Assembly: GCF_000143415.4 (NCBI RefSeq)
Contig: NW_003314268.1
Span: 2,372,494-2,436,493 of the forward strand
Direction of reading: 5' to 3'
Origin: Selaginella moellendorffii
Taxonomy: Eukaryota > Plantae > Lycopodiophyta
Length of the DNA: 64,000 nt
Part shown: piece by piece, positions 2,663 through 62,591 of the stretch
How the letters are laid out: the number at the start of each line of letters is the position of its first letter
Numbering within the stretch: position 1 is the stretch's first letter
Made by a program: the position numbers and the translations under genes
The notes under the pieces: generated by a model
What the model saw: only the letters and a program-made list of their open reading frames with translations
Told to the model about the DNA's origin: nothing
The model's database searches: none

Positions 2663-2798
2663 GGCGCTCCTCGATGCGTCAAAATTTCCACGAGCTGATC
2701 AAATAACCCTCGTCTAAACCTTATAAAACTGGATATACCTTCTTTCAACTGGATGGAGGATATACCGAGTGGCGCATTTTAGGGTTTATGGATCCGGG

Positions 2799-17455: not shown

Positions 17456-20050
17456 TTAACTCCCTCTCAGTCCAGACATGTGCTTCTTCAAGGACAAGTC
17501 CTTTTTGTTGTGGTTCTTTTTGGTCGCAAACTGCGGCCTGTATGGTGGCTTTCCCCTTTCCCCGTGAGCACGATGTTGCGTTGCAGCAGAGGTACCCTTC
17601 GCTGTCTCCTTGTCATCTTCTCCTCCGTCATCTTCTTCCTTGTCATCTTCACCATCAGAATTTGCGGGAACGTTACCACCCCGACCAAGCCCGTAGATGA
17701 GTCCCTCCTCCTGCTTTTTCAAGGCCTCCGCTTCTTCCAGACTCGAGACTGCCACGGCGCCAGCGACTTTGTAGTTGTAGTGCTTCCCGTCTTTAACAAA
17801 GAATCGTGACGCTTCCTGCTTTCGTTGCGGCCTTCCAGACGGTTCTTGTTTCTGGCTCGCAGAGAAAGGCTTGGCTTTTTGTCCGTCCTCCAAAGAATCT
17901 GAAGAAAGTTTTGTGCGGGAAAACAGATTCACCAGGCTGTCTGTCTCGAGACCCGCCTCCGCCACGTTCGTATCAAGGTCGTCAAAAGAATCGTCATACT
18001 CGTCTTCATACATCAGCTGCATTGCTAGCTTTGCCGTCTGATTGGACGTGCCGGCATCTCGTTCGTCAAGAATGGTGGCTGCATCGTCGTCCCTGTTTTG
18101 TCTCTTTCTTACGAACCGCCCCTGTGCTTTGCTTGCTTGGTTTTCGACAGCTTTCCCTTTCCCTTTCGCATCGACGTTGCTTCTATCTTCTTTCTTTGAG
18201 TCGACGAGCTTCCCTTTACCTTTTTTCGGTGTGGAGGTCAGGTCGGGGTGAATAGTGCCTTCCAAAATATGCTGAATAACGATCTCGGGATTGCTGTCGT
18301 ACACCTCAAGGCATGCTGAAAGGAACGCGTCATCGTAGTCAGGGAGCAAGTCTTTGATCTGACTGATATGTGACTGACGAATAGCGTCCTCTTCATCCTT
18401 TTCGTGAGAAACACTGACTGGTGGCTTTCTGTCTTCAACAAAATTTGTCGAAGGCATATCAGGTAGCAAAGCAAGTAACTGGGCATATTGGCCATCATCG
18501 AGAACAATTGAGCCTTGATAAGAAAGAAGAGCAACGGGTCAGGAAAGACAATGCATAAACTAAGCACGTACCTTCTTGAAGAAGCCTATGAACGTTCCCA
18601 GACAAGTCAAACATGTTGGATAGGGAATGTATTAAACTAGCTCCGTCGCTGCCGAATGAAAGGCCAATCAGCGCGTCCACAAAGACCTCTCCATTGGCTT
18701 TGGAATCCATCCGAGTCGTTGTATCTCCAAAGAAGGAATTGAAAAGAAGGCTCCAGGCAAAATGCACAAGCTCCCGTTGGAGTGTGTCCAGATATCGAGA
18801 AAGCTCTTCTCCAATAGATTGTTTCCTTACTGACGGCAGCAGCGAGTTGTAGACACACGATAAAGAGAACATTAGACTCTTGTCTCTACTGCACATAAAA
18901 ATAACTATTAGCAAACAGAAAGAGTGAAACCTCGGCTTACGCAGGCTCTGCCGACAAGAAAAAACCCGCTGCAGGAGGATAAATCTCAACAAAAGCGTTT
19001 AGTGTCATCACTGTATCGTGCAATAAGACTACAGCCTGTTACAATCAGTGTGAGTGGACAAAAGAGGACCAATGGCAAACCACTCAAACCTCCATAAGCT
19101 CGTCCTTGAATTCTGAGTTGGATTTGTTGGTTGAATGTCCAATGCTCTAGAGAATACGAGTCAGCCAATCACATCAAGCATGCAAATCATACCTCGAGAG
19201 TGCGCTTATTAACTCCATCGATCGTAGCAAGGACTTGACGAGCAACGTCAGAAAGGGTCTGCAAATACGAAGGCTGGAACTTCAATACGGTACTAACCTT
19301 CAAACAAAATTCACTTTCAGAACACACAAAATGAAACTCAGAGTCCAGATTTACAGTACCAATCTCCGCGTCAACTCCGGATTGTCGTGTCCATAGATCG
19401 CGCAAACATTCAAGAGCTTTGCCACATTAAACTTGTCCTCCACACGAAACTTAGCTATCAAAAACTACAAACGCTTGTATCGACCAAAGGCAGAAGAAAG
19501 CACATACATACCTGCACTAATCCTGGACAAACCAGGATCTTCGTCAGAGCACCTGGTTGATCCAATCGAGAGTGAAAGAAGAAGATGACATTTGAGCTTA
19601 CATCCGGAGAAGCACCATAAAAACTCGTCGGCTCAGATCGTCTTCTCCAGGCACCACTCCGCCAGTCGGATGAAGATCGTACCATCGCCTTCGATAAAGC
19701 AAGTAGCTTTCTAGAAACTCATGCAAAGACTCATTCGCAGTAACTAAAGCAAGGAAATAAAAAAACAACAAAGCGTCAGTCACAAAATGCAGCAAAAAAT
19801 CCATACCTTCTTCCCAAAACTCCCGCGCCTTCATTCTCAAAAGCCGGCTGAGCTCTGCGTTGAGAAAATCGATAATCTCTAGCGCTTGCGAGGAATTCGC
19901 CTCATCCTGCGGCAAATACGCTACAAACACCAACCCCGGCTTGCAATACCTGCCATTCTCGGATAAATCCGAAGGCCTCGTCGCCGGATCCCTCGCCTTC
20001 CACTCCATCGCCGGCGAGTTCCTCGCCTGGTACTGCCGGCGCTGCGCCAT
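17456..20050 (-). CDS. ASCC2: Activating signal cointegrator 1 complex subunit 2 (CUE domain)
   Basis: N-terminal FVAYLPQDE...FLESYL...RRVFMVLLRM, CUE domain ISQIKDLLPDYDDAFLSACLEVYDSNPEIVIQHILEG, and YEDEYDDSFDD. Confidence 0.88.
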
Positions 20051-20896: not shown

Positions 20897-21037
20897 TGTA
20901 AGCAACCAAAGAGAATGACTCAAAATATGATTTGTTCGGGTTCAAATATAGAGGGAAAAACCCCATGAACAAGAGTGCACCCCCTTTTTTAATAGGTCAA
21001 AAGTCTTAGGGTTATGTGTCCTTGGTTTTATATAACA
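20897..21037 (+). mobile_element. Decayed copy of the 5S-type (Cassandra-like) LTR family, lacking the 5S core
   Basis: TGTAAGCAACCAAAG...GGGTTCAAATATAGAGGGAAA...CATGAACAAGAGTGCACCCCCTTTT matches the reverse complement of 40138-40331. Confidence 0.7.
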
Positions 21038-22018: not shown

Positions 22019-22177
22019 TGTAAGCTTCTGAATTTCAAACCCAAAGACACTTAACCCTAAGTATCTCAAAACCCTTAACCTATTGGAAAAGGGGGTGCAC
22101 TCTTATTTATTGGCTCTTTCCCTATATATTTGAACCCCATCGATCATCTCTTAAATCATTCTGTTTGGTTACTTACA
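22019..22177 (-). mobile_element. Solo-LTR-like decayed copy of the same family; keeps only the A-box-like part of the 5S core
   Basis: TGTAAG...CTTACA termini. AAAACCCTTAACC.ATTGGAAAAGGGGGTGCACTCTT aligns colinearly with 40138-40331. Confidence 0.75.
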
Positions 22178-22392: not shown

Positions 22393-22492
22393 NNNNNNNN
22401 NNNNNNNNNNNNNNNNNNNNNNNNNNNNNNNNNNNNNNNNNNNNNNNNNNNNNNNNNNNNNNNNNNNNNNNNNNNNNNNNNNNNNNNNNNNN
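22393..22492. other. Assembly gap (100 N)
   Basis: Run of 100 n characters. Confidence 0.99.
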
Positions 22493-25330: not shown

Positions 25331-25828
25331 GTGGATGATTTGGTGTTAATTTGTTTTTATGTGGTTTATTTAAAGGGCTTTTTGCTCAGTACAAGGGGTT
25401 GTATTGAGTGTTGTAACAAGTTTGACCACAAGTTTATGAAGTTTGGTATAATGGTTAATAAGCAGATTCTTTATAAATTGTGTATATGCAGCAATTGAAA
25501 CATTTTATATAAAGGGATCAAGAACAATAATGTAGCGCATGTGATCATGAGATGAGATTTGGATATACTGTCACCGTGGATCCTTGGAACCTTGGGGGAT
25601 AAATGGGGATAAAATAGCCACTAAGGGCTCTCTCATCAAGCAATTGCCCCTTTTCCAGTTGGCTTAAGGGGAAAGAGATAAGGTGCGCTACAGTTGGTAT
25701 CAAAGCAAATGGCACGGGTTCGATTCCCATTAATTAGTGGCTACTTAAAAGTATAATATACCCTTGAGCAAGGTATATTCCTACCCCTAAATTTGAAATC
25801 GTACGTATTAGACATCCATACATATGTC

Positions 25829-25982
25829 TTTCCTCTTGTGTGGAGTATCCATAGATGAAGGTATTCACCGTGGGACTGCGGTCCTTCCTCTTGTGTGGAG
25901 TATCCATAGATGAAGGTATTCACCGTGGGACTCCAAACTGCAATCCTTCCTCTTCTGTGGAGTATCCATAGATGAAGGTATT
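25829..25982 (+). repeat. About 56-62 bp tandem repeat inside the TRIM, continued at 41693-41766 after the chromovirus insertion
   Basis: Unit TTCCTCTTGTGTGGAGTATCCATAGATGAAGGTATTCACCGTGGGACT, about four copies in total. The third copy is split at GTATT. Confidence 0.9.
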
Positions 25983-27139
25983 TGTAAGCCACAAATTTTT
26001 CCTTTCCAATTTGCCAGCTTACCTCGTCTATCCGACCAACTCTGCCTTGGCTTGTGCTAAATTCCCTTGCCAAGGTTCCCGCCTATGGTACCAGCTCCTA
26101 CTTGGTCCTACTTGGTTTCAGCTACTCACTGCACGAGCAACGGAGTGTTAGCCATCCATCTACGGATTCCCAAATCTCTCCCAATCCCCTTCCCTGGGTT
26201 AGACTGGACTTAAGGTTCGGCTACACTCCCCGCAGGCACAAGCAGCCAAGCACACCAAGCCTCCAGATTCCTAACACCCCTTGGTACCACAAGACTTGAT
26301 CATGGGACCCTCTAAATCCCAAGTCTTGGGTGCAGCACTTGCTTTGGGACGTCGGGGCGAAACACCATGGCCTAACGGCCCGATATAAGTACCTCTACCC
26401 CCCCACTTCCATCCCGAAGGGAAGGCCCAAGCCCCTAGGGAGGGCGAGGACCAATGAGCCACAAGGTACTCAAGTGGGGCACCATTCCACATGAGCCGGG
26501 AGCACCGCAGTCAGTTTCCCTTTCGGGAGTGGGAGCTGCTCTTGAGCACTTCCCTGGGTGGCCCCTCCGGCACAACTCAAGCCCATGCTCACTCCCACCC
26601 AAGGCCCCTCGGTCCCAGTCTCAACCTCAAGTCAGTTTGGAAGCACCATTGGAGAGTTCCTTCAAGACTGGTTTCTGGGCCTCACTATCCCTACTATACT
26701 TTTGGAACCCCCTGCAGCCCCCCCCCTGGGAGACGCACGCTTTGGGCTTTCACCCCTTGACCCGTATTAGTATTTGGACTTAGTCTCTGGCTCGATCTCG
26801 GACCCGATTTCGGATCCGACTTCGGATTCGGTCTCGGACTCGATCTCGGACACGATCTCGGACCCGATCTCGGACCCGACCTCGGACTCGACCTTGGACT
26901 CGGTCTCGGACCCGATTTCGGATCTTGGACTCCGTCTCGAACTCGGTCTCGAACTCGAACTCGAACTCGGTCCCCGAGTGGGTCTCGAACTCGATTCCGG
27001 ACTCTATCTCGAACTCAGTCCTAGAGTCGGTCTTGGACTCGATCTTCGACTTGGTCCCATCCGATGAACTCTTTGTCATTTTGGTCATGCTTTTGGGGTT
27101 CCTTTAGCCTACGACACCTCGGCGAGTTGGTTCCTTACA
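25983..27139 (-). repeat. 3' LTR of element A (contains a degenerate 6/12-bp CTCGGA-type array at about 26790-27050)
   Basis: Direct repeat of 40538-41692, differing by scattered substitutions (mostly transitions) and small indels. Confidence 0.95.
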
Positions 27140-27542
27140 ACTCCACCACCCATTGAAGAAGTTCGATGCCCACATCGAACATCTCGTTTTATCCTACGAC
27201 TTGTTGACCATGGCTCCGGGGGCATCCCCCCACTTAGCGGTGTGCCTAAGTTAGCCTCTCCGGCCAAGAGCCCATGACAACGGAATATAGGTGTCCCTAT
27301 ACCCCTAACCTCACCATGCCCTAGTATAGGGTCGGGACTTGAACCCAGCCTTGCTTTACTAGGGGGTTGGGACTCGAACCCAACCTCCGTAGAATACGTC
27401 TATGGATTCGACATCCCCACGGGGAGTCGGGCGTAGTGCTCTACGCCTGGTCGACCTATCCAACCCATGCTAATTAGCTTACCTTCGGCGTGCCTTCGGG
27501 TCCCAACATATGCCTCTTGCTCAACTTTGCAAATTGATATTT

Positions 27543-30500
27543 TTAATTGAATTTTGCATAAGTACATAGAGTTCTGCCTTGCAGAAATTCCTCCACTAGA
27601 TCTCGCACGTTCGCTAGGTTCTCCTCTGGTTCCCATGTTGCTTCGCAGTGTGGAAATCCTTTCCATTTCACATGGAACTCTCTCACCTCGCGTCCTTGTG
27701 GCTTGCTCCTGCGCGCATTGAGGATAGCCTCGACTTCGTATTCCTTTTCCCCTTGGATAACCTCAGGTAAAGGTCTCACTTGGTCCTTGCGAAGCGGATC
27801 CTCAAAGTACGGCTTGAGTAAGTTCACGTGGAACACTGGGTGCATCTTCCCCATCTCTCGAGGAAGTCGGAGTCAGTAAGCCACTTTACCGATTCGTGCC
27901 TCAATCTCATAAGGCCCCGCGAACTTGCTTAAGGAACTCAAGATCAATTCATTTACAGGAATACATGCATCTTTACCTTTGGGTCAACTTTCGGCTGATC
28001 CACTTGGTAGTCTGAGGTTCTTGGTGTTCAGCCACACCTTCTCCCCCAGCTTGGAACTCTACATCCCGATGCTTCTGGTTCACGTATTTGGTTTGCCTTT
28101 GTTGAGCCCGTTCCAAGGAATCCCTCACTAGATTCCAAATGCTGAGTCTTTCCGCCGTGAATGCCTCCACTGCGGGCAACTCTCCATGATACTCGGCCAC
28201 GCCGAGTTCCACAGGACCTTCAATAGCTTGCCCATTGATGACTTCCCATGGACTCACCCCGATACTCGAATGTGGTGAGTTGTTATAACACATTTCCGCA
28301 AGTCCCAAATGACTTACCCAATCGGTCTGGTCTCCCGAGACATAGCATCGCAAATAATCCTCCAACTGCCTATTCACCCTTTCCGTTTGTCCGTCTGTCA
28401 AGAAGTGTTAGTGCCAACAACTTGACTTAATACCCCATACCTGTCTGTGGGTGATAGGCTGTGCTGAATTTCAACTTGGTGCGATACTGTTCGAGGAGAG
28501 TCCTCCAGAACCTACTGGTGAAGATCTTATCTCGATCTGAGATGATCTCTTCTGGTCTTCCCCGCACTCGAACCACTTGCTCGAGGAACAACTTTGCCAC
28601 ACCTTCCGCATCCACTTCTGTTGTGGTGGGTATGAAATGTGCCATTTTCGAAAATCGGTCCACCACCACGAATATCGCATCAAACCCCTCGCTTGGGGGG
28701 AGTCCCGTGATGAAGTCCATCGTAAGACATTTCCACGGACGATCTGGAATTGGGATGCTTTGCAACAAGCCCCCACTAGCCTTATGCACGGCTTTTACCT
28801 GCTGATATGTTGGACATGTCTTTACATAGTCTTGGATGTCCTTAACCATATCTGGCCAATGGTACTTCCTCTTGAGTAAGCCCATCATCTTGGGCACTCC
28901 ACCGTGTCCCGCAAGAGGTCTGTCATGACACTCTTCTAAGGCCACCTTCCTTAGTTCCCCTTCTGGAATATACACCCTTGTTTGCTTATAATAGATGAGT
29001 CCGTTGCGTTTCGCATAGCCCGTTTTCTCTTCCGTTGGCAGCTCACCTCTCTGGTGAGCTTCCCACGCCTCTAGATTCCTCAGCAACACTTCTTGTGCTA
29101 GACCATCATTCTCATATGCTGTCCGCACATCGTCCCAGAAGGTTGTTGTTGTGCTGGATATTGCCAACCTCAAGCTCGCTTTTTGAATTAGCACATCCGC
29201 CACGATATTGCTCTTCCTAGGCTTGTACAGAATCTCGCAATCAAACTTGGCCAAGGCATTGGCCCACCGACCTTGTTTCCCTCTCAGGTCGGGCTGTGAC
29301 AAGAAGTGTTTCATTGCCACATTGTCCGTGTAAACCTTGAAGTGTCTCCCAAGGTAGTGTCGCCACTCCTTGAGCGCCTTGACCACCGCAAACAATTCCT
29401 TTTTATGGGCAGGCCACTTCCGTTGAGCCTTGTCCAACTTCTTCGAGAAGAACGCTACCGGATGGTTGTCTTGCTTCAAAACTGCGCCCAACGCAAAGTC
29501 CGAAGCATCCATTTCTACCTCAAAGTCCTTACCAAAGTCTGGTAATGCCAATACGGGAGCCTTCCTCAACTTCCCTTTGAGGTGGACGAATGCCGCCTCG
29601 CATTCCGCTGTCCACACCATTTTCCCTTTTTCTGTTTGGTCCGTTAAGGGCAGGGCTACTCTCGAATAGTGTCTGATAAACTTTCAATAGTAGTTGCATA
29701 GCCCTAGGAATGCCCTCAACTCGTGTACATTCGATGGTCGCTCCCATTCCTGGATCGCTTGGACCTTCTCCGGGTCCACCTTGAGCCCATCCTGGCCCAC
29801 CACATGCCCTAGAAACTTTACCTCTTGTTGAGCAAAGTCACATTTGCTCTCTTTAGCATACAGTTTGTGTTCCTTTAGTTTCTCAAACACCTTCGCCAAG
29901 TGTTCGGCATGCTCCTCTAGCGTCTCGCTATAGATCAGGATGTCGTCAATATAGACAACCACGAAGTGATCCAGATAGGGTACAAAGATGTGGTTCATTA
30001 GCGCCGAAAACGTTGCCGGCGCATTACATAGCCCGAAGGGCATCACCAGAAACTCAAAGCTCCCATACCTCGTTCGACAGGTTGTCTTCTCGACATCTTC
30101 CTTGGCTACCCTGATTTGGTAGTATCCTGACCTTAGTTCAATCCTCGAGAAGTATTTTGCCTTTCCCAATCTATCGAACAGGTCCTCAATCCTTGGCAAA
30201 GAGTACTTGTTCTTCTTTGTATACTTGTTGAGCAACCGGTAGTCTATGCACATGCGCATAGATCCATCTTTCTTTTTCACAAATAACACCGGCGCCCCAT
30301 ACGGCGACTTGCTCAACCTAACATACCCTTTGTCCACCAACTCCTCTAGTTGGCACTTGAGCTCCTTGAGTTCTTTTTCGTTCAAACAATAAGGGGGACG
30401 AACCATTGCCTCATCACCCTCGACCAGCTCAATCTTATGTTCTATCGGTTGTGTTGGGGGTAGCCCCGCCGGTAGCTCCTCTGGCATGGTATCCTAGAAT

Positions 30501-31917
30501 TGGTCCAACACCCGCTGGATCACTAAAGGTACTTCTTCCATTTCGGTCTTTTTGTCACTCTTCACCGAGAGTAAGCACAAAAAGACTGCCTTAGTTCCTT
30601 TAGTGAGCTGTCCTCTCGTGGACACCAGGTTTAAGCAGGAATCTTTGGCCTTACTTTGCCCTACCTTTAGATCTTGGGCCTCCACCCTAGATCTTCTTCC
30701 TTGTGCATTCGCCAGTACCACAAGGTTTCTACCTTGTCCATGCAGGGCTACCACGAATCGATTGAACCAGTCCATTCCGAAGATCACGTTAAATCCCGCC
30801 ATGTCCAACACGGTGAAATCCATGTCCACCTTCCAAGTCCCCACTTCGACTCTCGCTTGTCGAAGTACCTCATCGGTGCTTTGGCTACCTTGAACAAACT
30901 TTATAGTCCTTGGTTCGCCTAGCCGTTGCACCGTTAGTCCGGCTTGCCAGACTATGTCTGCAGCCACAAAATTATCCGAAGCACCCGTGTCAATAAGGAT
31001 ATTAACAAAGCTACCTCCGAGCTTCCCTCGGAGGGCTAGTAGATGTCACGAACGACTCTCTACCAAAGTTGCTCGTGTAATGAGTAACTTTGAGTTAGGG
31101 ACTGGATCACATACCTCATTTTGGACTCCACCCGACTTGATGGCCATATTGGCTCTGGCCTTCTTCGGGTAGGGACATTCCCTCGAGAAGTGTCCCGCTT
31201 CACCGCAATTGTAGCATACGTTATTTCCCACGCTGCTATACGACTTGACCTTCTTATCCGTGGATTTGTCTCTTTTCGCTTGACACCCCCACGTACTCGC
31301 TCGCTGGCCACCAGATCTGCCTTTCCGGAACCCCGAGGACTCATTCTTAGAGAAACTCTTCTTGAATTTCCCTCTGCTAAACGTTCCCCTTGGTTTGGCC
31401 CCTTTGCTAAATATGGATCCCGACCCCGTCGTGTTCCCCTTTCGCAAGTTATCGTTGAAATGCACCTTGATGGCCGCATCCAACGCTTCCTTATAGTTGG
31501 TCGGGTTCCACCGCATTACTTCGCCGCAAGCCCAGGTTTGCAAACCTGATATGAAGGCATGGAACGCATCCATATCCCCCATGTCTGTGACAAGTATTCT
31601 CTTTTCCATAAACCCATTCACATACTCCTGAATGGTTCCGGTCTGCTTCAGCCTACTCAGCTCGTCCCTTAGATGTAGAGTAGCATTCGGAGGAACGTAA
31701 GTTGTGCGGATCCTCACCTTCATCATTTCCCAAGTGGCCACCGGTCCTTCGTTAGCCTCTGTCATTCTCCACCAAGACTTGGCATTATCTGCCAAGTATG
31801 GTTTTGCACATGGGACCTTCTCCGAGCTCGGTAATCGCAACGCTCGGAAGTAGTCCTCCATATCGTAAAACCAATCCTCCACCACCTTATAGTCGTTCAC
31901 TCCCTTGAAGACCGGTG
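27543..31917 (-). pseudogene. Disrupted gag-pol of element A: gag C-terminal half with zinc knuckle, protease, RT, RNase H, integrase, chromodomain
   Basis: CYNCGEAGHFSREC, LIDTGASDNF, YIDD, DASDFALGAVL, HHCC zinc finger (ECHD...GH...CPTY, last Cys lost), MDFI...SDRD...GQTE, GPY and YEVEAIL...VKWKGFPHCEATWEPEENL. Premature stops at 31046, 30494, 29684 and about 27874 each fit a CGA/CAG to TGA/TAG change. Confidence 0.95.
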
Positions 31918-32921
31918 TGTAAGCGACTAATTTTTCCGTTCTACTTTAGTCACTTAACCACACCTCCAACCACTTAGAGGAGTCTCATTCACAACCTCCA
32001 TAAGTCCAATTTAGGACTTGGGACTTGCTAGCCCCAAGAATGGCATCCATGCCACTCCACACTTGCACCTGGTCCAAGTGCTCCACGTGTCCGGTCCCAA
32101 GACCGACACCCAAAGGTACCACTGACATCTCGGCCCGTTACGCTAAGGCCATGCCCATTCACCTTTGCTGCACTAGTGATCCAATACCATTTGCATCACC
32201 ATCCCGTCTCTCCAAGACTGGGCCATCTGTCCACGAGTGGTCATCCTGGATCCACTCCTTAGCATCCTTAGGATGCCCACAGACCTGGGGAATCGCCTTC
32301 CCGAAAGTTCCTTTGTCAGTTCCTACCAAGTCCCTTTCTGCCCCTAGCCGTGTTTGCCAACACTGCCACTGGATCGAGGCCCACAGGCCCGACCACTAAG
32401 TCCCATGGTCCTCTGGGACTTCTTCACCACACGACTGTGTCCTTGGTCACTACCCCAGAGGACTGCTCCTCTTCCTTTCCACAGTCTAGGCCTTTGGGAC
32501 AACATTTCGGAACACCGTGGCCTTACGCGAGCCACCTGGGTACTCTCCCCGCCTTTCGCCTTTAGGTGCTCTAGCCATGGGCTTAGAGCGAGGTTCCGTT
32601 GAGCCACGCCTGGTATCCAAGTAGGTAGTGCCACCCACACTTGGACTGGGAGCATCGGCCAGTCGATCTCCCGGGGGAACTAGAGCCGGCTCTTGAACAC
32701 TTCACCAAGCTACCCCGCTTGTCGGTCCGTATTCACTCTAGTCTTGGACTTCCCAGTGGTCAGTTCATCACCCAACACTGGGTCTGGCCTTCCTGGGCCA
32801 AACTAGCCTTTCCTGGCCAAACTGGCTCCACTGCAGTCCTCCCCCTACTATACTTTTGGAGCTCACCAAACCCCCCAGGGTCTGGGAGACGAACGCTTTG
32901 GGCTTTCACCCTCTCAGGCTC

Positions 32922-33050
32922 CGGACTCGGACTCGGACTCGGACTCGGACTCGGACTCGGACTCGGACTCGGACTCGGACTTGGATTCGGACTCGGACTC
33001 GGGCTCGGGCTCGGTCTCGGCCTCGGCCTCGGTCTCGGTCTCGGTCCCGA

Positions 33051-33084
<34 letters not shown>

Positions 33085-33480
33085 AGCTCTGGCTCTGGCC
33101 TCGGACTCCATCTCGGACTCCATCTCGGACTCCATCTCGGACTCCATCTCGGACTCCATCTCGGGTCCATCTCGGGTCCATCTCGGACTCCATCTTGGAC
33201 TCCATCTCGGGTCCATCTCGGACTCCATCTCGGACTCCATTTCGGGTCCATCTCGGGTCCACCTCGGACTCCATCTCGGACTCCATCTCGGACTCCATCT
33301 CGGGTCCACCTCGGACTCCACTTCGGACTCCATCTCGAACTCCATCTCGGGTCCATCTCGGACTCCACTTCGGACTTCAACTCGGGTCCATCTCGGACTC
33401 CACTTCGGACTCCAACTCGGGTCCATCTCGGACTCCAACTCGGGTCCATCTCGGACTCCAACTCGAGTCCATCTCGGACA
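32922..33480. repeat. (GGACTC)n/(GGTCTC)n hexamer plus (GGACTCCATCTC)n 12-mer array in the left LTR of B
   Basis: Directly visible tandem array. Confidence 0.95.
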
Positions 33481-36400
33481 CTCCCACGTGTCATGTGTTG
33501 GTCCTTTTGGGTCCCTTTTTGGAGCCTCACTTCGTGCTCGTTCCTCGAGCCCTTCTTTGGGAGTTCCACTCCCGCTCTTGACTTTTCAAGTCGGAGCTTT
33601 TGGTCCAACCGTGTTACGCTCGTTTGGCTCTCGCTTCAGCCACTACCACGTGGCACCCTTTCCGGCTCCACTTTGGGGGCTAGGGATTTTGTGTCTCACA
33701 ACTCCACCACCCATAGACAAAGTTCGATGTCCTCATCGAACGGTAAACCCTTTCATAAAGTAACACCCACACGTGTTACCATTTCCATCCTTGGCACCTA
33801 GTCAATCTTTGTCTATGGTTTGACACCAAAGGCTCACCATGCCTTGTCCATCCTTTAAGGAGCGTAGTCTTTCCAACTTAGAGACTGATTGGACCACATG
33901 TAATGGTTCTCTCCTTTTATTGGTTTAGTGCTCGCTAAACCTCTTAGAGACCCTTCTCTAAGTCAATCCCACTACTCCTTCTCGAGTAGTCTCAATTTCC
34001 ATCGATATAACCTCCGCACTTTGGAACTTTGAAGTTTGACTCCTTGGAGTCAATTTCCTAGGTGTCTCCGACACCTTGCCTTGCACCTTTTGTGCAACTC
34101 CACTTCCCTTCCTAGAAAGTTCTCTACTCGAGGGCACCATCATCCTCTCTTCTATTTCGTGCCAAAGTTCCAGTTATCATACTTTGTGCTAGGGCTGTTC
34201 ATGGCCCTATCATTTGGCTACCTTACCGCTCCCTCCCTTGGAGCTTCCACTTTTGCCAAACCGGAGCATTTCGGAATCCCTCCTTGGAAACACACTTCCT
34301 TTCCCGCAACTTGTTAGCGTCCAACACATTAGTGTTCCTCGCCTAACTTTGTCACTTGGATTCCCCCCAAGGGATTCCACGGCCCTATCTTGGCCACTCA
34401 TCTTTTGCTCCTATCCGTTGATTGTTGCACCAAGCAACATCGAATCTCTACCTCCCTCCTTGAGGTATTGTTTCGGTTCCATAGCAAAGACTCTTCTTTG
34501 CCAAGTCCGGAGGATGTTCACCCCTAGTACGTCTCTTTAGCATCTTCTGCTATGGGCTCTATCCACGGCCCAACTTCGTGACCCTCCCATGGGTCTTTTA
34601 TAGAGACTACTTTCCTCGGACTCACTATGCCATCTCACGGACTTAGTTTATTCCCCTTAGGTGCTCTTCCCACTTGGTCATCACGACCAAGCCACATCAC
34701 CTTAAACAGTTCAATTTCAACATTTTGAACCAGGAACTTCATTCCTTAGCCAACCAAGGACCTTGTCCTTATCTGGCCATAAGATCACCTAGTGATCTCA
34801 CCTTGGCACCTTAACAGAGTTGCCAAGAGGTACTTGGTCTTCTAGACCTCCAAGTTGTTGACTATAACCCCGGGGGCATCCCCCACACTTGGCGGTGCAC
34901 CCAAGCCAGCCCTTACGGCCAAGGGTTCATAGCAACTGAGATTAGGTGTCCCCATCTCACTCACCACGACCTTGGTGCCACTTGCACCAAAGCGTTCAAG
35001 TTAGATATGCTGAGCTTTCACACTAAGCAATCTAACCGTGCATCATGACTCCGAGGCATCCCTCGCTTGGCGGTGTGCCCAAACCAGTCTCCCCACTGAG
35101 AGTCCATGACCACCGAAATATGAGTGTCCTCATATTCCAAACCATCACCACGCCCTAGTGATTTGGGACTCGAACCCAAGCACTAGAGGGTCGGGACTCG
35201 AACCCAACCTCCGTATATGCATCTACAGACGGCATCACACAAGATGCCTGGCGTGACTCCCCACGCCGGTGCACCAACTTATTTTTAAAGCGCGCTACAG
35301 ATCACAGCTTAGGAACCTAGTTCCTCCACACTGCCAAGTCCTCTCACTTGACATGTCTGTGATCATGCATGGACTCCTCCATGCTCGGCCCCATGGCCCA
35401 CCCTTTTTGAAGTTATCACCTTCAACTAGGGTATTTGTTCCCCCAACGTGCCAATCTCGCTTGGCAAGTCCTCCGACCACTATAACATAGTTCCTGCATA
35501 AGCGTGAAAGTCCTTGACCATCGACTTTCGTTCAAAGCCCTCTCTTTGAACACTCGGGAACTACTTCCCTAACCTTGATAACCTTGCCTCATTGCAAGCT
35601 TCAAGACCACGCTTCTGCTGCGCCACTCTGATTTCGCGCGTTCCATGAACCATTTACACTTGGCCTTTCTAGGTACTAAGCTACCTAGAATCGTCTTTGG
35701 GAACCTTGAAGGAACTCTATCCTTCAGCTTGCTAAGGCCTCCCTTTTTCCAAGCCTTCCAAATGCCACATAGTCTAACATAGACAATTCCATATTTTAGA
35801 CTCTCCATGGCATCACGGTTGCTAGCGGCAACACCCTTGAGCCCCCACTTGATTCTCCACTCCCAGCTGGCATAACCAACCTTGGTTATGCCCTTTAATT
35901 CCTATGGTTCGGTTCTATCCCCTTACTTCTTGCTTTTTGGCTTCACACCTTTCCTTTGGTCATTCTCCTTCAGACCAGGAGGATAGCTTTGCACTTTCTA
36001 TCATGCTTTAGCAAGTATTCTTAGGGATGAACCTACTTAATAGCCTAGGGAGTGGTTCCTCAATCCGGGTATGCTCACCTTATAATCCCACACACTGGGA
36101 TTACATTGTTGCTTATGGGCCTTTACATGCCCATCACTAGCCTTGCCAAAATTCCATTTTTGGCTTTGTCCAACTCGGGTAGACAGTCCTCTCCTGTCTC
36201 CGCAACCTTGGACATTTGGATAGCACCTTCTATCCATCATTCGCTAGGGACTTAGTCCCTTGGGCTTTATCCATTGCCCTCGCGACATCAAACACCACCT
36301 TCTGGTGTTCTAGAGTGTTCGGGTGTCCCAATGATGGCTTTCTTGACAATGAGTATTTCCTTTTATGACATTGACTTACTATATCGCAACACAAGCAACT

Positions 36401-38765
36401 TATCCCCCGTAAAGGTATATCCAACTTCCCTATGCTATTAAGAAGTCTTGGGTAGCTACCTTCTACCCGTTTAACCAGTTATTTTGCACCTCTTGCTTAG
36501 TTGCCTCATAGTTGTCAAGTCCTACAACTCATTGCTTGGTGCTTTCACACCTCCATCATTATCTGGGTCACCACACTCCAACTGCATGCTCTGCAACTTA
36601 GGCTATGCTATTCCCATTTCCATTGGGATTCCTTTGGCAAGGGGTTCTCATGAACCCACCAACATAGCCTCAAGGTATCACCCCTTGGCACATTTGGTGT
36701 CTCCACACCATCGGCTCCACGAGCCTACCTCTATGACATTTCCCCTTCGTGTCTAAGTCTTTGCCAAGACCAACACCGCTCTTTCTTATGCCAACCGTTA
36801 GCACTGCACCATAGAGGTCACACACAACTTTATGTCAAAGTTGTTTTCTTCTGGGAACACCTTTCCCATAACTTTAGCATGGCACATTCTGCCATTGATG
36901 AGATACCCTCTGTTCTCATCCTTGGATCCTATGATCCCCCCCCATCCTTTGTGGGGTACAACACACCTCAGTCCAAATGCTTCCATCAGTCCTTTTAGGA
37001 CCATCCGTTGACTCTACTTGAGTCATCCAACAGTTTTGGACTTGGTTAATCCACAGACCCGTAAGGTCCTACTTGTGAGGCACTAGCTCACTGGAATACA
37101 CTTCTTGCATTCCTGTCCTACTCAAAAGGACTATTTTCACAAGTGTTACTCCGACACTTGATTTTGTTCTCTGGGGGCAACCTTTGCCCCTTAGGACTAC
37201 TTGTCCATGTGATGAGAACACCAACTCATCCACTTAATACATCCCCAACTCCTTGGGTTGTTCCAGCATTTATTAGAGGTAGCCCCGGCTACCTTTTCAA
37301 GGGCTTGAGTCCTCTTCCATATTTGACCTCCCACGGTCATTACTTCTGGTCTCACATTCATGAGCACCAACCTCAACTATATGAGGAAAATCTTGTGACT
37401 CCTTTATTGCTTTGGAGTCTTTATCTTTCCCGTGATCCCAACTGTAGTTGTTTACCACAACTACATTAGCCAGTTTGCTAAGTCAAACGCTCATCTAGAT
37501 CACATCCTCAACTTTTTTTTTTTTTTTTGAGGAAAACCTTGCACTGTTCCCAAGATCCCAAAGTCGTTCCATTATTGGCCCCTTTTCTATACACCACCTT
37601 GTCTACAAGTTCACACATGAACTGTAATGGAGAGCCATGTCTTCCCGACCTGCTACTCCTCAAGGATAGGCCCACTTCTCGGACCTTCCATTACCAACAC
37701 CAGTGGTGATATACTTGAGCACCAATAAAAGTCGGACTAAGGAACAGCTCCGATACCAAGTTGTGAGCGACTAATTTTTCCGTTCTACTTTAGTCACTTA
37801 ACCACACCTCCAACCACTTAGAGGAGTCTCATTCACAACCTCCATAAGTCCAATTTAGGACTTGGGACTTGCTAGCCCCAAGAATGGCATCCATGCCACT
37901 CCACACTTGCACCTGGTCCAAGTGCTCCACGTGTCCGGTCCCAAGACCGACACCCAAAGGTACCACTGACATCTCGGCCCGTTACGCTAAGGCCATGCCC
38001 ATTCACCTTTGCTGCACTAGTGATCCAATACCATTTGCATCACCATCCCGTCTCTCCAAGACTGGGCCATCTGTCCACGAGTGGTCATCCTGGATCCACT
38101 CCTTAGCATCCTTAGGATGCCCACAGACCTGGGGAATCGCCTTCCCGAAAGTTCCTTTGTCAGTTCCTACCAAGTCCCTTTCTGCCCCTAGCCGTGTTTG
38201 CCAACACTGCCACTGGATCGAGGCCCACAGGCCCGACCACTAAGTCCCATGGTCCTCTGGGACTTCTTCACCACACGACTGTGTCCTTGGTCACTACCCC
38301 AGAGGACTGCTCCTCTTCCTTTCCACAGTCTAGGCCTTTGGGACAACATTTCGGAACACCGTGGCCTTACGCGAGCCACCTGGGTACTCTCCCCGCCTTT
38401 CGCCTTTAGGTGCTCTAGCCATGGGCTTAGAGCGAGGTTCCGTTGAGCCACGCCTGGTATCCAAGTAGGTAGTGCCACCCACACTTGGACTGGGAGCATC
38501 GGCCAGTCGATCTCCCGGGGGAACTAGAGCCGGCTCTTGAACACTTCACCAAGCTACCCCGCTTGTCGGTCCGTATTCACTCTAGTCTTGGACTTCCCAG
38601 TGGTCAGTTCATCACCCAACACTGGGTCTGGCCTTCCTGGGCCAAACTAGCCTTTCCTGGCCAAACTGGCTCCACTGCAGTCCTCCCCCTACTATACTTT
38701 TGGAGCTCACCAAACCCCCCAGGGTCTGGGAGACGAACGCTTTGGGCTTTCACCCTCTCAGGCTC

Positions 38766-38894
38766 CGGACTCGGACTCGGACTCGGACTCGGACTCGGAC
38801 TCGGACTCGGACTCGGACTCGGACTTGGATTCGGACTCGGACTCGGGCTCGGGCTCGGTCTCGGCCTCGGCCTCGGTCTCGGTCTCGGTCCCGA

Positions 38895-38926
<32 letters not shown>

Positions 38927-39416
38927 CCGGTCTCGGTCTCGACTTCGGACTCCATCTCGGACTCCATCTCGGACTCCATCTCGGACTCCATCTCGGACTC
39001 CATCTCGGGTCCATCTCGGGTCCATCTCGGACTCCATCTTGGACTCCATCTCGGGTCCATCTCGGACTCCATCTCGGACTCCATTTCGGGTCCATCTCGG
39101 GTCCACCTCGGACTCCATCTCGGACTCCATCTCGGACTCCATCTCGGGTCCATCTCGGACTCCACCTCGGACTCCAACTCGGGTCCATCTCGGGTCCACC
39201 TCGGACTCCACTTCGGACTCTATCTCGGGTCCATCTCGGGTCCACCTCGGACTCCACTTCGGACTCCATCTCGAACTCCATCTCGGGTCCATCTCGGACT
39301 CCACTTCGGACTTCAACTCGGGTCCATCTCGGACTCCACTTCGGACTCCAACTCGGGTCCATCTCGGACTCCAACTCGGGTCCATCTCGGACTCCAACTC
39401 GAGTCCATCTCGGACA
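38766..39416. repeat. The same array in the right LTR of B, with more copies
   Basis: Directly visible; accounts for the roughly 90-bp LTR length difference. Confidence 0.95.
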
Positions 39417-39636
39417 CTCCCACGTGTCATGTGTTGGTCCTTTTGGGTCCCTTTTTGGAGCCTCACTTCGTGCTCGTTCCTCGAGCCCTTCTTTGGGAGT
39501 TCCACTCCCGCTCTTGACTTTTCAAGTCGGAGCTTTTGGTCCAACCGTGTTACGCTCGTTTGGCTCTCGCTTCAGCCACTACCACGTGGCACCCTTTCCG
39601 GCTCCACTTTGGGGGCTAGGGATTTTGTGTCTCACA

Positions 39637-40079
39637 CGGTGGGGGCTTTGGTTTGTACTTGGGAACTACCTGAGGGACTGATTCCACTTCGGTCTGTTCG
39701 ACCTTGTCTGGTTTTGCCTCAGTCTCTGCCGAAGGGTCCGCACCTTCTGCGCTGTCAGCATCCGCAGTCTTTCGCTTTTTCTTCCGCTTCTCATCACGCT
39801 TCAGCTTGCGTACGAGTTTTTCTTCCGCTTCTCATCACGCTTCAGCTTGTGTACGAGAGTCTCTAGCAGGGCATTGGTCTGTGCCAATTGTCCTTCTAGA
39901 ACGTCCAATCGAGCCTTGGATGACCAAACCTCACCACCAGACTCCTGTTTGGAAGTTGCCTCACTGGAGTCCTCCTCATGCAAGGATTCCTCATCCATAG
40001 CCTCTTGTTCGACCGGAGGCTCCAGCTCTGGAGGAGGTTCCGTCTCTGCCTGGGTTCGCTTACGTCCTGCCCTTGCCAT
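39637..40079 (-). pseudogene. N-terminal gag of element A, frameshifted by a 41-bp tandem duplication
   Basis: ATG at 40079 (MARAGRKR...), coiled-coil RLDVLEGQLAQTNALLETLV. Duplicated units at 39776-39816 and 39817-39857. The frame continues to ...VPKYKPKPPP at the B insertion site. Confidence 0.85.
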
Positions 40080-40137
40080 CTCCCAGCAATCCGCCTTTAT
40101 CCTTCGCTAGAACTGAGGAAGAGGCTCTGATACCAAA

Positions 40138-40331
40138 TGTAAGCTCCTAAATTTGGACTTCCCGGGAGGTCACCCAGCCCAGTACTACTCAAACTCAAGG
40201 ATGCTTAACTCCAACTATCCCAAAACCCTTAACCGATTGGAAAAGGGGGTGCACTCTTGTTCATGGGCCCTTTCCCTCTATATTTGAACCCTATGGATCG
40301 TCTCTCAAGTCGTTCCCTTTGGTTGCTTACA
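40138..40331 (-). mobile_element. Internal 194-bp Cassandra-like LTR carrying the 5S rRNA internal promoter core (40155-40210)
   Basis: TGTAAGC...GCTTACA inverted termini. The minus strand reads AGTTAAGCATCCTTGAGTTTGAGTAGTACTGGGCTGGGTGACCTCCCGGGAAGTCC, colinear with the plant 5S A-box/IE/C-box region. It is followed by PBS TGGTATCAGAGC (40135-40124) and preceded by PPT-like GGGAAGCGTGGTGGAT. Confidence 0.9.
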
Positions 40332-40537
40332 ATCCACCACGCTTCCCTGCAAGTTCACGCCCTCGTGAACGGAAGCTGAGAGCCGCAGCTCTCCCGAGAG
40401 CCCCGCTCTCTTGACACCCTACCCCTCGAGTCGAGCCCAGCGGGAGCAAACTGGACCAGCCAGATGTCAATCAATATGTGGTGTGATTCCCTTAGCCAAC
40501 CAGCAGAGTCGGACCCGAGACCGCTCCGATACCAAAT

Positions 40538-41692
40538 TGTAAGCCACAAATTTTTCCTTTCCAATTTGCCAGCTTACCTCGTCTATCCGACCAACTCTGC
40601 CTTGGCTTGTGCTAAATTCCCTCGCCAAGGTTCCCGCCTATGGTACCAGCTCCTACTTGGTCCTACTTGGTTTCAGCTACTCACTGCACGAGCAACAGAG
40701 TGTTAGCCATCCATCTACGGATTCCCAAATCTCTCCCAATCCCCCTCCCTGGGTTAGACTGGACTTAAGGTTCGGCTACACTCCCCGCAGGCACAAGCAG
40801 CCAAGCACACCAAGCCTCCAGATTCCTAACACCCCTTGGTATCACAAGACTTGATCATGGGACCCTCTAAATCCCAAGTCTTGGGTGCAGCACTTGCTTC
40901 GGGACGTTGGGGCGAAACACCGTGGCCTAACGGCCCGATATAAGTACCTCTACCCCCCCACTTCCATCCCGAAGGGAAGGCCCAAGCCCCTAGGGAGGGC
41001 GAGGACCAATGAGCCACAAGGTACTCAAGTGGGGCACCACTCCACATGAGCCAGGAGCACTGCAGTCGGTTTCCCTTTCGGGAGTGGGAGCTGCTCTTGA
41101 GCACTTCCCTGGGTGGCCCCTCCGGCATAACTCAAGCCCATGCTCACTCCCACCCAAGGCCCCTCGATCCCAGTCTCAACCTCAAGTCAGTTTGGAAGCA
41201 CCATTGGAGAGTTCCTTCAAGACTGGTTTCTGGGCCTCACTATCCCTACTATACTTTTGGAACCCCCCTGCAGCCCCCCCCCCCGGGAGACGCACGCTTT
41301 GGGATTTCACCCCTTGACCCGTATTAGTATTTTAGTATTTGGACTTAGTCTCTGGCTCGATCTCGGACCCGATTTCGGATCCGACTTCGGATTCAGTCTC
41401 GGACTCGATCTCGGACCCGATCTCGGACCCGACCTCGGACTTGACCTCGGACTCGGTCTCGGACCCGATTTCGGATCTTGGACTCCGTCTCGAACTCGGT
41501 CTCGAACTCGGACTTGAACTCGGTCCCCGAGTCAGTCTCGGACTCGATTCCGGACTCTATCTCGAACTCGGTCCTAAAGTCGGTCTTGGACTCGATCTTC
41601 GACTTGGTCCCATCCGATGAACTCTTTGTCATTTTGGTCATGCTTTTGGGGTTCCTTTAGCCTACGACACCTCGGCGAGTTGGTTCTTTACA
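40538..41692 (-). repeat. 5' LTR of element A
   Basis: Direct repeat of 25983-27139, adjacent to the PBS. Confidence 0.95.
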
Positions 41693-43473
41693 GTATTCAC
41701 CGTGGGACTGCGGTCCTTCCTCTTGTGTGAAGTATCCATAGATGAAGGTATCCACCGTGGGACTACGGTGCGGGTGGATAACTAGTTGCCTCACATGGAA
41801 TAGCTAATCTATACAATGGAAGGATTAGTAGATTGAGTCCGGAAATGGAGATGTTGGTTATGAGGACATTGATATATTTAACTAAGGGCTCTTTCATTAA
41901 GGAATTGCCCATTTTCCAGTTGGCTTAAAGGGAAAGAGATAAGGTGCACTACAAATAAGCACCATCTACAAATCAATCAGTACCTCCTCTTAATGTTCTT
42001 CTAGATCCTAATTTATCATCCAGAGAATCTTAATTGCCTTTCATCCTTCCAGAAAAAGGGGATGATATGAGGTAAGTGCATAATTATTATATTGTATATT
42101 AATATTAGTGTAATAGGAATTTAATAGCTATTAGATTGGTTTTAATTTAGAAACTTGCTCCTATATATAAGCTAGAGTTTTGGGGCTAATTGAATATGCA
42201 TATTCCATTTTTATATTCCTATAATTTTTTATGTTAAAATTATTTTAAAATTTTTAATATTACCTAAATTATATTTCATAAAAATATAAAATATTTTAAT
42301 ATTATATTTTTAGACTACTTTTGGTTCCATTTAATGAACACTTACTAAAGAACATGTTACAAAAAGTAACATATTATATACATTATATTGTAATATATTT
42401 AATAAAGGATAGCCAAAGTCTATTCTATTTTATTTGCTAAGCTGGGTCTAGCAAAGTCAAAGAGCATCTCCTCTCAGTTAGGTAAGATCTATGCTACATT
42501 ATAATGATCATTAATAGTAAGATAATTATTATATTTATGAAGTGTAAGATTAATTTAAAGTAAAGTGTTCTTCTTAGTATGTCATTGTCTTTTTACGTCT
42601 ACTTCTAAAGCAAGGTTGCATGCATTATTGATACATCAAATGATAATTGCAATTCATACTATCAGTGATCCTATTTATGAATGAAAGCAAATAAATGTTT
42701 CATATGACACTTGATATTTCTAATCCTGGTAGACTAAAAATGTTTTCTTGCCATGAATACAAATAAGGATACAAATGAAAAGAAGAAGGAACATATTATA
42801 TAGAGCAAGGTAATTGACTTAAAATATCAATAAAACATGAGATAAGATCTTTAGGCTCACTTAGTTTAGTTAATATTGTCTTCTCATTAACAATAGCACT
42901 TGATTGGCATGATAAAGACCTATCTAACTTGGGAGGTGTGGCATGGGAGAGACATCTTCCTCCCCACCTTAATAGCTTACTCAACTTGCTTTGTAAACTT
43001 AATATAACAAGAATAAATCTTGAGAAGATGTCTCACATCATAGTTAAATTCACTAAATGAAAACTTAAAACCATAATTATTATTAATACTGAATAATTAA
43101 AAATATTATAGATTTTCTAAGGTAAATAGAGAATATAATAATAAGTCTTTCTCAAGAGTAGATAAAGTTTTGTACTATAGTAATAACATAATAAGTAGAT
43201 CAACTCAGGGGTGGTTGAGAGGCTAAAAACTTTGCTAAAGTGTATACGCTTCAAGAGTATCCTAAAATTCTAATGCCAAAACTAACTCCAAAAACGTAAA
43301 AATAAAGTAAGGTACAATTCAAGTATATATATGGTGTAACACCAACACTAATTAGGATGGTAATGAAGCAACATAACAAGTTGTGAAGCCAAACAATGAG
43401 AAGAATAAAATAATAGAGTGTGGAGCCAAACTAAACCAACAAAAGAAATGAAAATTTATTTATTTATTTTATT

Positions 43474-45751: not shown

Positions 45752-48129
45752 ATGAGCGGCGATAAGCTCTTGAGAATGGATGACGCATTAGAGGCAGTTG
45801 ACAAGTGGGTAAATCAGGGCTATGTTGTAGATGAGAAGAAGATCACGGCGTTGATAATGTATCTCACAGAAGGCCCTGGTAAGCTCCAGCCACAGGAGTA
45901 CCGCACTGAGAAGCCAAAGCCAACCCTGATGGCAATTGCAGCTACATGGTGGAAGCAGCAGAAATGGAAAGGGAAATTGGAGTTTCAGAAAGAGTTTCAG
46001 AAAGAGTTTCAGAAGGGGGAGTTCGAGTTTCAGAAAGAGTTTCAGAGACGGAAATTGGAGTTTGAGAAAGAGTTATTGGAGTTAAAGAAAGGGCAATTCG
46101 AGTTGAAGAAAGCGGAGTTGGAGTTTAAGAAAAGAATGGAAAAAGAAGAAGAGGAGAGGAGGATATTAGTAACAGTCATAAAAAATGCTCATACCATTTC
46201 TGACATGGAGAAGTTCTCTGACAGTGAAGCTGCTGACTTCCACAAGCTTGTACTGGATAAGTGGAATCCTTTGCATCAACTCCTGCGTGGCAATATTGAT
46301 TTACATGCAATACGGTGGAGATCGTTTCTGCCCAAGCCACTCGGTATGTTTATTTGTTTATTATTTGTTTTGTTTAAAACTTTGTTTCCACACTTGCATT
46401 AGAATTTCATAGGAGCCAAACCACATTTGGAAGTAGATATGTGCTCGACAAACTCAACCAAGAGGGAATCCAAAAAAGCTGGGACCAAATCAAAAGAGAT
46501 GTTTATGCAGACTATAAGGGAAGAGGCTTTGAACATTTACAAGTTTCATATCTGGAAGCTACGGAGCCTGATCAGCTTGGTACTGTTTTCGTTTCTTCTT
46601 TCTTCTTTGTTACAAATCCTTGTCCTTGAATGCAGGGAAGAGCATGTATGCCTGTGATGAGACTTACGCAGAGGTCAGAGTCAAACACTACGCTGCCTAT
46701 GGCGTTTGTTTTGCAGCGCTGTTGGAAAGTATCTTTCGGGTCCTTGACAAAGACAAAGGTCTGCCTACAATTTCGGTGAAGGTTCTGGCCCCAGTTCACA
46801 CATCAAACGGGAAGCTAGAGGTTGAAGTCGAAAGGTCGAGTTTGAGGTGCAGGTTCCTAATAGAGATGAAGAATCTGAAGCGGCAGGGTGATGACATTCA
46901 GGAGGAGACGAGGGCGAAGAAAAACAGGGTGTCGTCGTCTGACCAGAAAAGCGACGAAAGTGAGGAGAACAAAAGCATAAGCAAGAAAAATCAGCCTATT
47001 GTTCTCAGCAACAATAATCAGAGTGAGCCTCTACAAAAGGCTCGAGGCCAAATTGGCGAAGTTCACGTGGAAAGGCAGTTTCAGCAGGTTCAGAGCGGGT
47101 TTGTCAACGGCATGCATGTTACAATCGTCCACCGGACTGACTCCACCAAATCCGAAGATCATTTCAGCGCCAGCCGGATACTGAAAGTCATGGAGAGTAG
47201 CGACATAAAGATAGGAGAGGCCAGGAGTTTAGATATGGATTCAAGGGGGGTCGATCAAATCCTCAAAGAGCTAGTTATTGCTCTGATTAAAGCCGGGTTC
47301 CTGCCACAGACTCTGCTTCAAGGTGATGTTAGTGGTGCTGCCGGGTTGAGAGCAGAGAGAATGGAAGTAAGTGTTGATGAAGAACAGCTAGTTAAACCGG
47401 TTAAGGCTGAGGCAGCTGAGATAGAGCACCGGTATCTATTCCCCGTGACAATCCATGGATCGGGATTGAAAGCCTGGATTAAAGCGGCAACAGTAGGTGA
47501 CCAGTACAAGCAGGTTCAGCGAGAGCTTTTAATTCGTCAGTATCTGTGTCCAGAGGACTCTGTGAAGGCGAGGGCAGTAGTCTGGAGAGGGGTTCCTGCG
47601 TTACTCTTGGAAGATGCGGGACAGAAAATCAACACAGACACGATGACGCCTGAGGACGTTTTCAATATGACAAAGGCCATTTATATGGTACTTTCTCATG
47701 TGTATGGTGAGCATGGGATTTTGCACAATGATGTTGCACCCCGCAACATCTGCCGAGACGAAAAGGGACGTTACCGACTTATTGACTGGGGATTGGCAAG
47801 CCGGCTTCCCGATATTGATCATCCCACAAATATACCTGATTGGCTTTATTCAGGTACTTAACTTTTTTTCTGGAGTTTGGTAACTGATTGTTCTTTATGC
47901 AGGTTCTTGCTTTTTCTCTGGAAGTCAAACTCCAAGAATCCATTCCGATTTAGAAAGCCTGGTGTATGTGGCACTTGACTGTCTCCATGTACCATTGCCA
48001 TGGGGAAATGCAGCCAATGGTTCTGATGTTATTAAGATCCGCAGAAGATTCCGGAGCAACTTGAACTCCTCAGTGTTGAATGCTTTGTATCGACCACTGC
48101 TCAAAGCATGGTTAGAGCTAGAGATCTGA
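45752..48129 (+). CDS. Lineage-specific coiled-coil + putative PD-(D/E)xK-like + divergent protein kinase (FunK1/Crinkler-type kinase-like), 4 exons
   Basis: Introns at about 46344-46402, 46580-46636 and 47854-47902 keep the frame. Kinase motifs are AWIK, RE, HNDVAPRNI, LIDWGLA, SDLESLVYV and LPW. Central FLIEMK; N-terminal EFQK repeats. Confidence 0.75.
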
Positions 48130-62326: not shown

Positions 62327-62591
62327 AGTCCTCTTCTAAGCTTTTCTCATTCTTCTTCTTTTTTGGTCAGCTGTGTATAAACTTCAGTGCGGTTATCCCT
62401 TAATCTTTCCCTTTATAGTGAAGACTTGCTTCCAAAGCTCCAAGATTAGGGTTTGTAGTGCTCTCTCTGGGTATGGCGCCGAGCAAGCTAAGGCACTGCC
62501 GGCGATAGGACGATTCGGTGCTTCCGGAGCTCGGCATTGTTCTTCTGCTGTCGATAATCGGCGCTTGCAAGAGCGAGGTGCATTCGCAGCG

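Follow-up and report, generated by a model that had tools for sequence, protein, structure and literature searches.

The window, a 64,000-nucleotide stretch of the Selaginella moellendorffii genome (contig NW_003314268.1), carries host genes for a PPR protein (2727-4988), a CUE-domain protein (17456-18538) and an RRM protein (62340-63236), together with a kinase-domain exon (46572-47861); a host-gene search gave best plant matches of only about 40% identity. It also holds a nest of LTR retrotransposons. The outermost is a small non-coding LTR element (25531-25692 and 41881-41953, plus strand) with an intact TSD, AATAA; it has a Met PBS at 25695, a tandem-repeat interior and a truncated 3' LTR, and its LTR has a short motif in common with the Cassandra LTR described below and no 5S core. 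Inside it lies a hybrid element with three LTRs, into which a further LTR element, element B, is inserted (Table 1).

Table 1 Parts of the hybrid element and of nested element B, in minus-strand order
Feature	Position	Strand	Remarks
5' TSD of the whole hybrid, AATAC	41693..41697	-	Paired with AATAC at 25978..25982
5' LTR-A, 1155 bp	40538..41692	-	12-bp tandem repeats and poly-G tract
PBS1, Met-tRNA type	40523..40534	-	One mismatch; preceded by a 3-nt spacer, as usual for LTR-A
Cassandra interior, 191 nt, non-coding	40332..40522	-	7-bp hairpin and G-rich PPT at its end
LTR-C (Cassandra LTR), 194 bp	40138..40331	-	TG..CA
5S rRNA-derived segment	40151..40223	-	Box A, intermediate element, box C; Rfam RF00001
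PBS2, Met-tRNA type	40124..40135	-	Perfect; preceded by a 2-nt spacer, as usual for LTR-C
44-nt leader and 5' part of likely gag	39637..40123	-	ATG 40079; frame broken
Element B, non-coding LTR element, 7719 bp	31918..39636	-	Splits gag; TSD CACCG
Element B LTRs	39636-37762 and 33700-31918	-	
Remainder of gag (CCHC), protease, RT, RNase H, integrase, chromodomain	27546..31917	-	Stops and frameshifts; Pfam
Family A 3' non-coding region	27140..27545	-	Hairpin and PPT
3' LTR-A, 1157 bp	25983..27139	-	
3' TSD of the whole hybrid, AATAC	25978..25982	-	Pairs with the 5' copy

The first-pass annotation had described LTR-A, PBS1, a non-coding interior, a PPT, LTR-C, PBS2, gag, pol with a chromodomain, a second PPT and LTR-A, all within one TSD, and we found every part in its assigned place, with AATAC at both ends. 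Its estimates of about 190 bp for the non-coding interior and about 45 nt between PBS2 and the gag ATG correspond to 191 and 44 nt; element B, nested in gag, had been overlooked. PBS1 and PBS2 are 399 bases apart. The two outer LTRs differ at 26 of 1145 aligned bases (K2P 0.023), and the sole N gap in the window (22393-22492) lies 3.5 kb outside the hybrid. Pfam searches recovered the order gag-PR-RT-RH-INT with a C-terminal chromodomain (Chromo, E 3.8e-16). No Pfam match was found in the 5' gag part (39637..40123), and a gag search of longer proteins yielded none among 1307 candidates at E 1e-8. The frame contains four in-frame stops down to 28427 as well as further frameshifts; since gag-pol is interrupted in this way and gag is split by element B, the hybrid copy is defective. 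Arrays of 11-12-bp repeats in LTR-A and in the LTRs of element B (41337-41660, 38706-39400, 32862-33480 and 26784-27107) create spurious low-complexity open reading frames. Insertion of LTR-C as a solo LTR, against which the earlier annotation had argued, can be rejected, as LTR-C has a PPT on one side, a PBS on the other and no TSD.

Cassandra TRIMs were reportedly described by Kalendar in 2008. The 5S core that had been read in LTR-C by eye was borne out by the Rfam 5S model (RF00001), which matched 40223-40151 with 31.5 bits and an E value of 1.7e-4 in a 701-base search, below the gathering score of 38; a scan of the whole window at the gathering threshold gave no matches. Box A and box C of the published Cassandra motif fit LTR-C with one mismatch each and stand 18 nt apart, which is the published spacing (excerpt of PMC7215508). 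The Rfam match ends 15 nt short of PBS2; the excerpted text of PMC7215508 gives 8 nt between the 5S sequence and the PBS in fern Cassandras, and the published endpoint may be set differently. A Met PBS and a G-rich PPT enclose a short non-coding interior, with sizes as in known members. By summation, a free Cassandra would be 593 bp long (LTR 194, interior 205, LTR 194), and this overall size matches three fern Cassandras in a supplement of PMC10853983, with LTRs of 187-208 bp, interiors of 190-193 bp and totals of 565-606 bp. The hybrid is unlike published Cassandras in that one unit is joined to a coding element with an unrelated LTR, whereas published multi-LTR Cassandras are tandems of Cassandra only. 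A search of viral contigs for the pattern of 5S core, LTR end and PBS gave no matches. Elsewhere in the window, a relative of the Cassandra LTR at 22019-22177 (minus strand) keeps both termini but is missing 35 nt, box C among them, and is flanked by no matching TSD, and a second relative at 20897-21029 (plus strand) is truncated; Rfam found no 5S match in the solo LTR at 22 kb.

We next consider the coding partner, which we call family A. RT matches were to Ty3 elements, the top-scoring ones being unnamed or chromodomain-bearing, and the closest protein, which is unnamed, was 67% identical in RT. We built a quick RT-RH-INT tree of 30 rows, comprising 19 of 20 chosen proteins, 10 of 30 long locus matches and the window, with no named reference. 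The element lies on a long branch in a set with 95% SH-aLRT support (19 of the 30 rows) that also includes metagenome loci and a chromodomain element from an angiosperm; Asteraceae, cotton and Closterium rows fall outside this set. A 67-row RT tree gave no placement of the element. Galadriel elements in non-seed plants combine tRNA-Met priming with a type I chromodomain (excerpts of PMC6317226 and PMC3350952), and both are present here, the cage residues having been judged by eye. Met priming sets family A apart from Tcn1, which self-primes (PMC6317226, in excerpt). As in the excerpted descriptions of Selaginella SM1/SM2-Galahad (PMC3350952), the LTR exceeds 1 kb and has poly-G, gag is of the CCHC type, the chromodomain is type I and the TSD is 5 bp. 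On the basis of Met priming, the long LTR with poly-G, the CCHC motif, the chromodomain and the 5-bp TSD, family A is likely to be Galadriel-type, a likeness of features, the tree having no labelled Galadriel reference.

To determine what stands next to each part elsewhere in the species, we used four public runs from three S. moellendorffii samples, aligned to 39640-40760 at 80% likeness, and drew on the best 15 of 162 joints, 24 of 1249 loose ends and 24 of 51,155 pieces. The best run contains 0.57 of the stretch's words, and runs X1 and X3 come from one sample, possibly the source of the window. Among these best records, loose ends at 40138 (31 contigs in X1) match the end of LTR-A, and loose ends at 40523 (45 contigs in X1 and 34 in X3) match the gag leader. 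Two joints pass over 399 bases, precisely the distance from PBS1 to PBS2, and four lead back from the Cassandra interior to LTR-C. At 40537, the end of LTR-C stands in place of LTR-A in four contigs of a second sample (S2) and in four RNA reads of the third. Read from joints and loose ends in the three samples, with no complete copy with a TSD, these records amount to a free Cassandra in which the interior lies between two 5S LTRs. Low-agreement loose ends at both ends of LTR-C (73 and 82 contigs in X1) indicate that LTR-C is a dispersed repeat. One S2 contig covers 152 bases of the interior and the start of LTR-C with a single difference, so the unit in the hybrid is close to current Cassandra copies. 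Thus both parents, LTR-A-PBS-gag leader and the 593-bp Cassandra, occur as plain forms in the species. Neither junction was bridged by any of the best 24 of 51,155 pieces.

The same records place the joins. The register of the loose ends gives an LTR-to-PBS spacer of 3 nt in plain A and 2 nt in plain Cassandra. In the hybrid, each LTR retains its own spacer and the sequence after each PBS is that of the other parent, which puts both crossovers within the 12-nt PBS. We conclude that the locus is a Ty3 chromovirus whose 5' LTR and gag leader are separated by one 399-bp Cassandra unit, made up of an interior and an LTR. We had also considered the interior as native to the family of A and B, element B beginning alike, and rejected this because the joints in the public runs show a free Cassandra interior.

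In LTR replication, plus-strand strong-stop DNA ends in a copy of the PBS and pairs with the PBS complement on the end of the minus strand. We propose that the hybrid probably arose by a crossed plus-strand transfer between co-packaged Cassandra and chromovirus RNAs. The two RNAs would have been reverse-transcribed within the same particle, each primed by Met-tRNA and each completing its own first jump. At the common primer-binding site the plus-strand strong-stop DNAs would then have been swapped, that of the chromovirus pairing with the minus-strand end of Cassandra and that of Cassandra with the minus-strand end of the chromovirus. The product would read LTR-A, PBS, Cassandra interior, LTR-C, PBS, gag-pol, LTR-A and, having matching ends, could have integrated once; the event may date from this insertion or from an ancestral copy. 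The order predicted in this way is the order observed. The near-identical outer LTRs, the single TSD and the host element's own preserved TSD count for co-packaging, and the occurrence at one locus only counts against it. Template switching between co-packaged RNAs was one of two origins offered by the first-pass annotation, and it gains support from the presence of both plain parents in the species and from the composition of the locus. The annotation also held that a helper role would fail if the junction proved unique and all related gag-pol copies lacked it; we disagree that uniqueness would refute it, since even a single heterodimer is a trace of co-packaging.

Three-LTR complexes were described by Sabot and Schulman in 2007 (PMC1950507), who also invoked co-packaging. 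The features of such template-switching complexes, an internal LTR, two interiors, near-identical outer LTRs and one flanking TSD, are all present in the hybrid. Their cases involve members of one family that switched at R regions, whereas here the LTRs are unrelated except at their ends, both joins lie in the PBS and one partner is a Pol III-type TRIM. Homology between LTR-C and LTR-A that might serve an R-region switch was not found, the local score of 30 falling below the shuffle maximum of 39. Inter-family TRIM chimeras of sugar beet (PMC13570524, in excerpt) likewise have a TRIM carrying an additional LTR that belongs to a different family, but these join TRIM with TRIM, have no coding partner and are not Cassandra. 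We conclude that the Cassandra-chromovirus fusion is real and is a variant of the known three-LTR complexes.

We then compared features that the two parents might have in common. The ends of LTR-C and LTR-A are identical at 12 of the first 13 and 13 of the last 18 bases; relatives in the clade agree with LTR-C at 7-8 of the first 13 (4 loci) and 5-8 of the last 18 (17 sites). LTR ends this short can converge. A hairpin with an AGG(A/G) loop ahead of the PPT is found in the Cassandra interior, in A, in B and in four of six relatives with a located 3' LTR. As a separate observation, the U5 ends before the Met PBS in relatives L002-L073 resemble the Cassandra U5 end shifted by one base, as judged by eye in an ungapped comparison.

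Element B is younger than the hybrid that it interrupts, its LTRs differing at 7 of 1782 positions (K2P 0.004). These LTRs and LTR-A are related, at about 70% over the repeat region. Two segments of B resemble the 3' non-coding region of A, and no gag-pol remnant could be recognised in B (best tblastn E 0.068). The first 150 interior bases of B align collinearly with the Cassandra interior over its full length, from the PBS through to the PPT (103/184). This alignment scored 62.5, which none of 1000 dinucleotide shuffles reached, against 47.5 for the best of 1256 background windows. Beyond the PPT the match into LTR-C is weak, being reached by 36 of 1000 shuffles, and another segment of B gave 73 versus 85 in a looser test. 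As a lead, the alignment suggests that the leader of B may be a decayed Cassandra-like interior, left by an older chimera of the same kind that went on replicating.

A route through DNA would need no co-packaging by family A: a one-LTR Cassandra circle, or cDNA, could have entered the PBS of a chromovirus already in the genome through recombination at microhomology. Such a circle would comprise one LTR (194) and the interior (205), that is 399 bp, exactly the inserted unit, and a single crossover at the PBS of an integrated A copy would yield an identical sequence. However, the break must fall in a common stretch made up of the 12-nt PBS and about 9 nt of imperfect LTR end, which is short for homologous recombination. 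The family-specific LTR ends and the older Cassandra-like interior of B at the same position are also left unexplained. We regard this route, the chief alternative to co-packaging, as rather unlikely. One-LTR circles and integrase-independent insertion into existing elements are discussed in the excerpted text of PMC11899658.

The other origin raised by the first-pass annotation, a coding chromovirus lineage that natively used the 5S LTR, as an ancestor of Cassandra, and gained LTR-A later, fits the direct succession of LTR-C, a perfect PBS and the gag ATG. Depth also shows no drop over the junction region, but summed contig depth is unusable as a measure of copy number or linkage. This reading is contradicted by the same gag leader joined straight to LTR-A in many contigs (the 45 of X1 and 34 of X3 noted above), by the 3' LTR of gag-pol, which is LTR-A preceded by a hairpin and PPT of its own, and by the identity of the interior ahead of LTR-C with the free Cassandra interior. 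The 5S core was moreover found in none of 80 related, if distant, pol loci (35-47% identity; 792,120 bases), and we consider a native 5S lineage very improbable. Least probable of all is an assembly chimera of two repeats joined at the PBS, which would agree with the lack of a bridging record among the best pieces, the scaffolding of the window across its N gap and the multi-copy nature of both parents, but would need two joins on about 20 common bases in a gap-free stretch of 16.4 kb across which each of the three elements, the hybrid, B and the host element, has a matching pair of TSDs.

Returning to crossed transfer between co-packaged RNAs, its consequence concerns the mobility of Cassandra. 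This non-coding retrotransposon is ancient and occurs throughout plants, and its Pol III-type LTR has so little in common with any coding element that its partner is beyond the reach of similarity searches. The earlier remark that an autonomous helper of Cassandra is not established agrees with excerpts of PMC7215508, in which the autonomous partners are unknown, of PMC10886601, which has no indication of the family responsible, and of a 2026 supplement to PMC13570524, which lists "autonomous partner: no" for beet Cassandra. No helper is named in the excerpts of PMC10853983, PMC10946416, PMC4717578, PMC4079214 and PMC12486564. Our literature search, whose scope excluded the supplements of bioRxiv preprints, found no fusion of Cassandra with a coding element and no named Cassandra helper.

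A fusion with both joins in the PBS would be a physical trace of particle sharing. If co-packaging took place as proposed, the probably Galadriel-type family A packages, and so can mobilise, Cassandra, which would name family A as a candidate helper. Together, the fusion, the matching LTR ends and the clade-wide hairpin ahead of the PPT point to a candidate helper lineage. More tentatively, it is possible that Galadriel-type chromoviruses in general are Cassandra helpers, that the two are co-packaged so often that PBS heterodimers recur and replicate as separate families, with B descended from an old one, and that fusion scars in any plant genome would reveal the partner. The fusion makes the helper question testable genome-wide from assemblies alone, and the hybrid points to a route by which three-LTR elements may form between unrelated LTRs.

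Finally, we examined RNA reads. On the Cassandra interior they reach a depth of 6-15, with all first mates on the plus strand; none aligns at 99% identity, so they derive from other copies. In most stranded libraries, such one-sided first mates mean sense Cassandra RNA, and the reads do not name the polymerase. Gag (39640-40095) drew no RNA reads in about 12% of one run, and none of the runs listed as containing the stretch is recorded as RNA; we place no weight on either for expression. No four-T run lies between the 5S core and element B, but translation is not expected of Pol III transcripts; the placement of gag-pol behind a 5S promoter is a positional relation only. In run X21, most RNA reads on 40151-40210 carry just the 5S-like piece and run into unrelated sequence with two fixed end pairs, as if fragments of Cassandra LTRs lay within transcribed host sequences.
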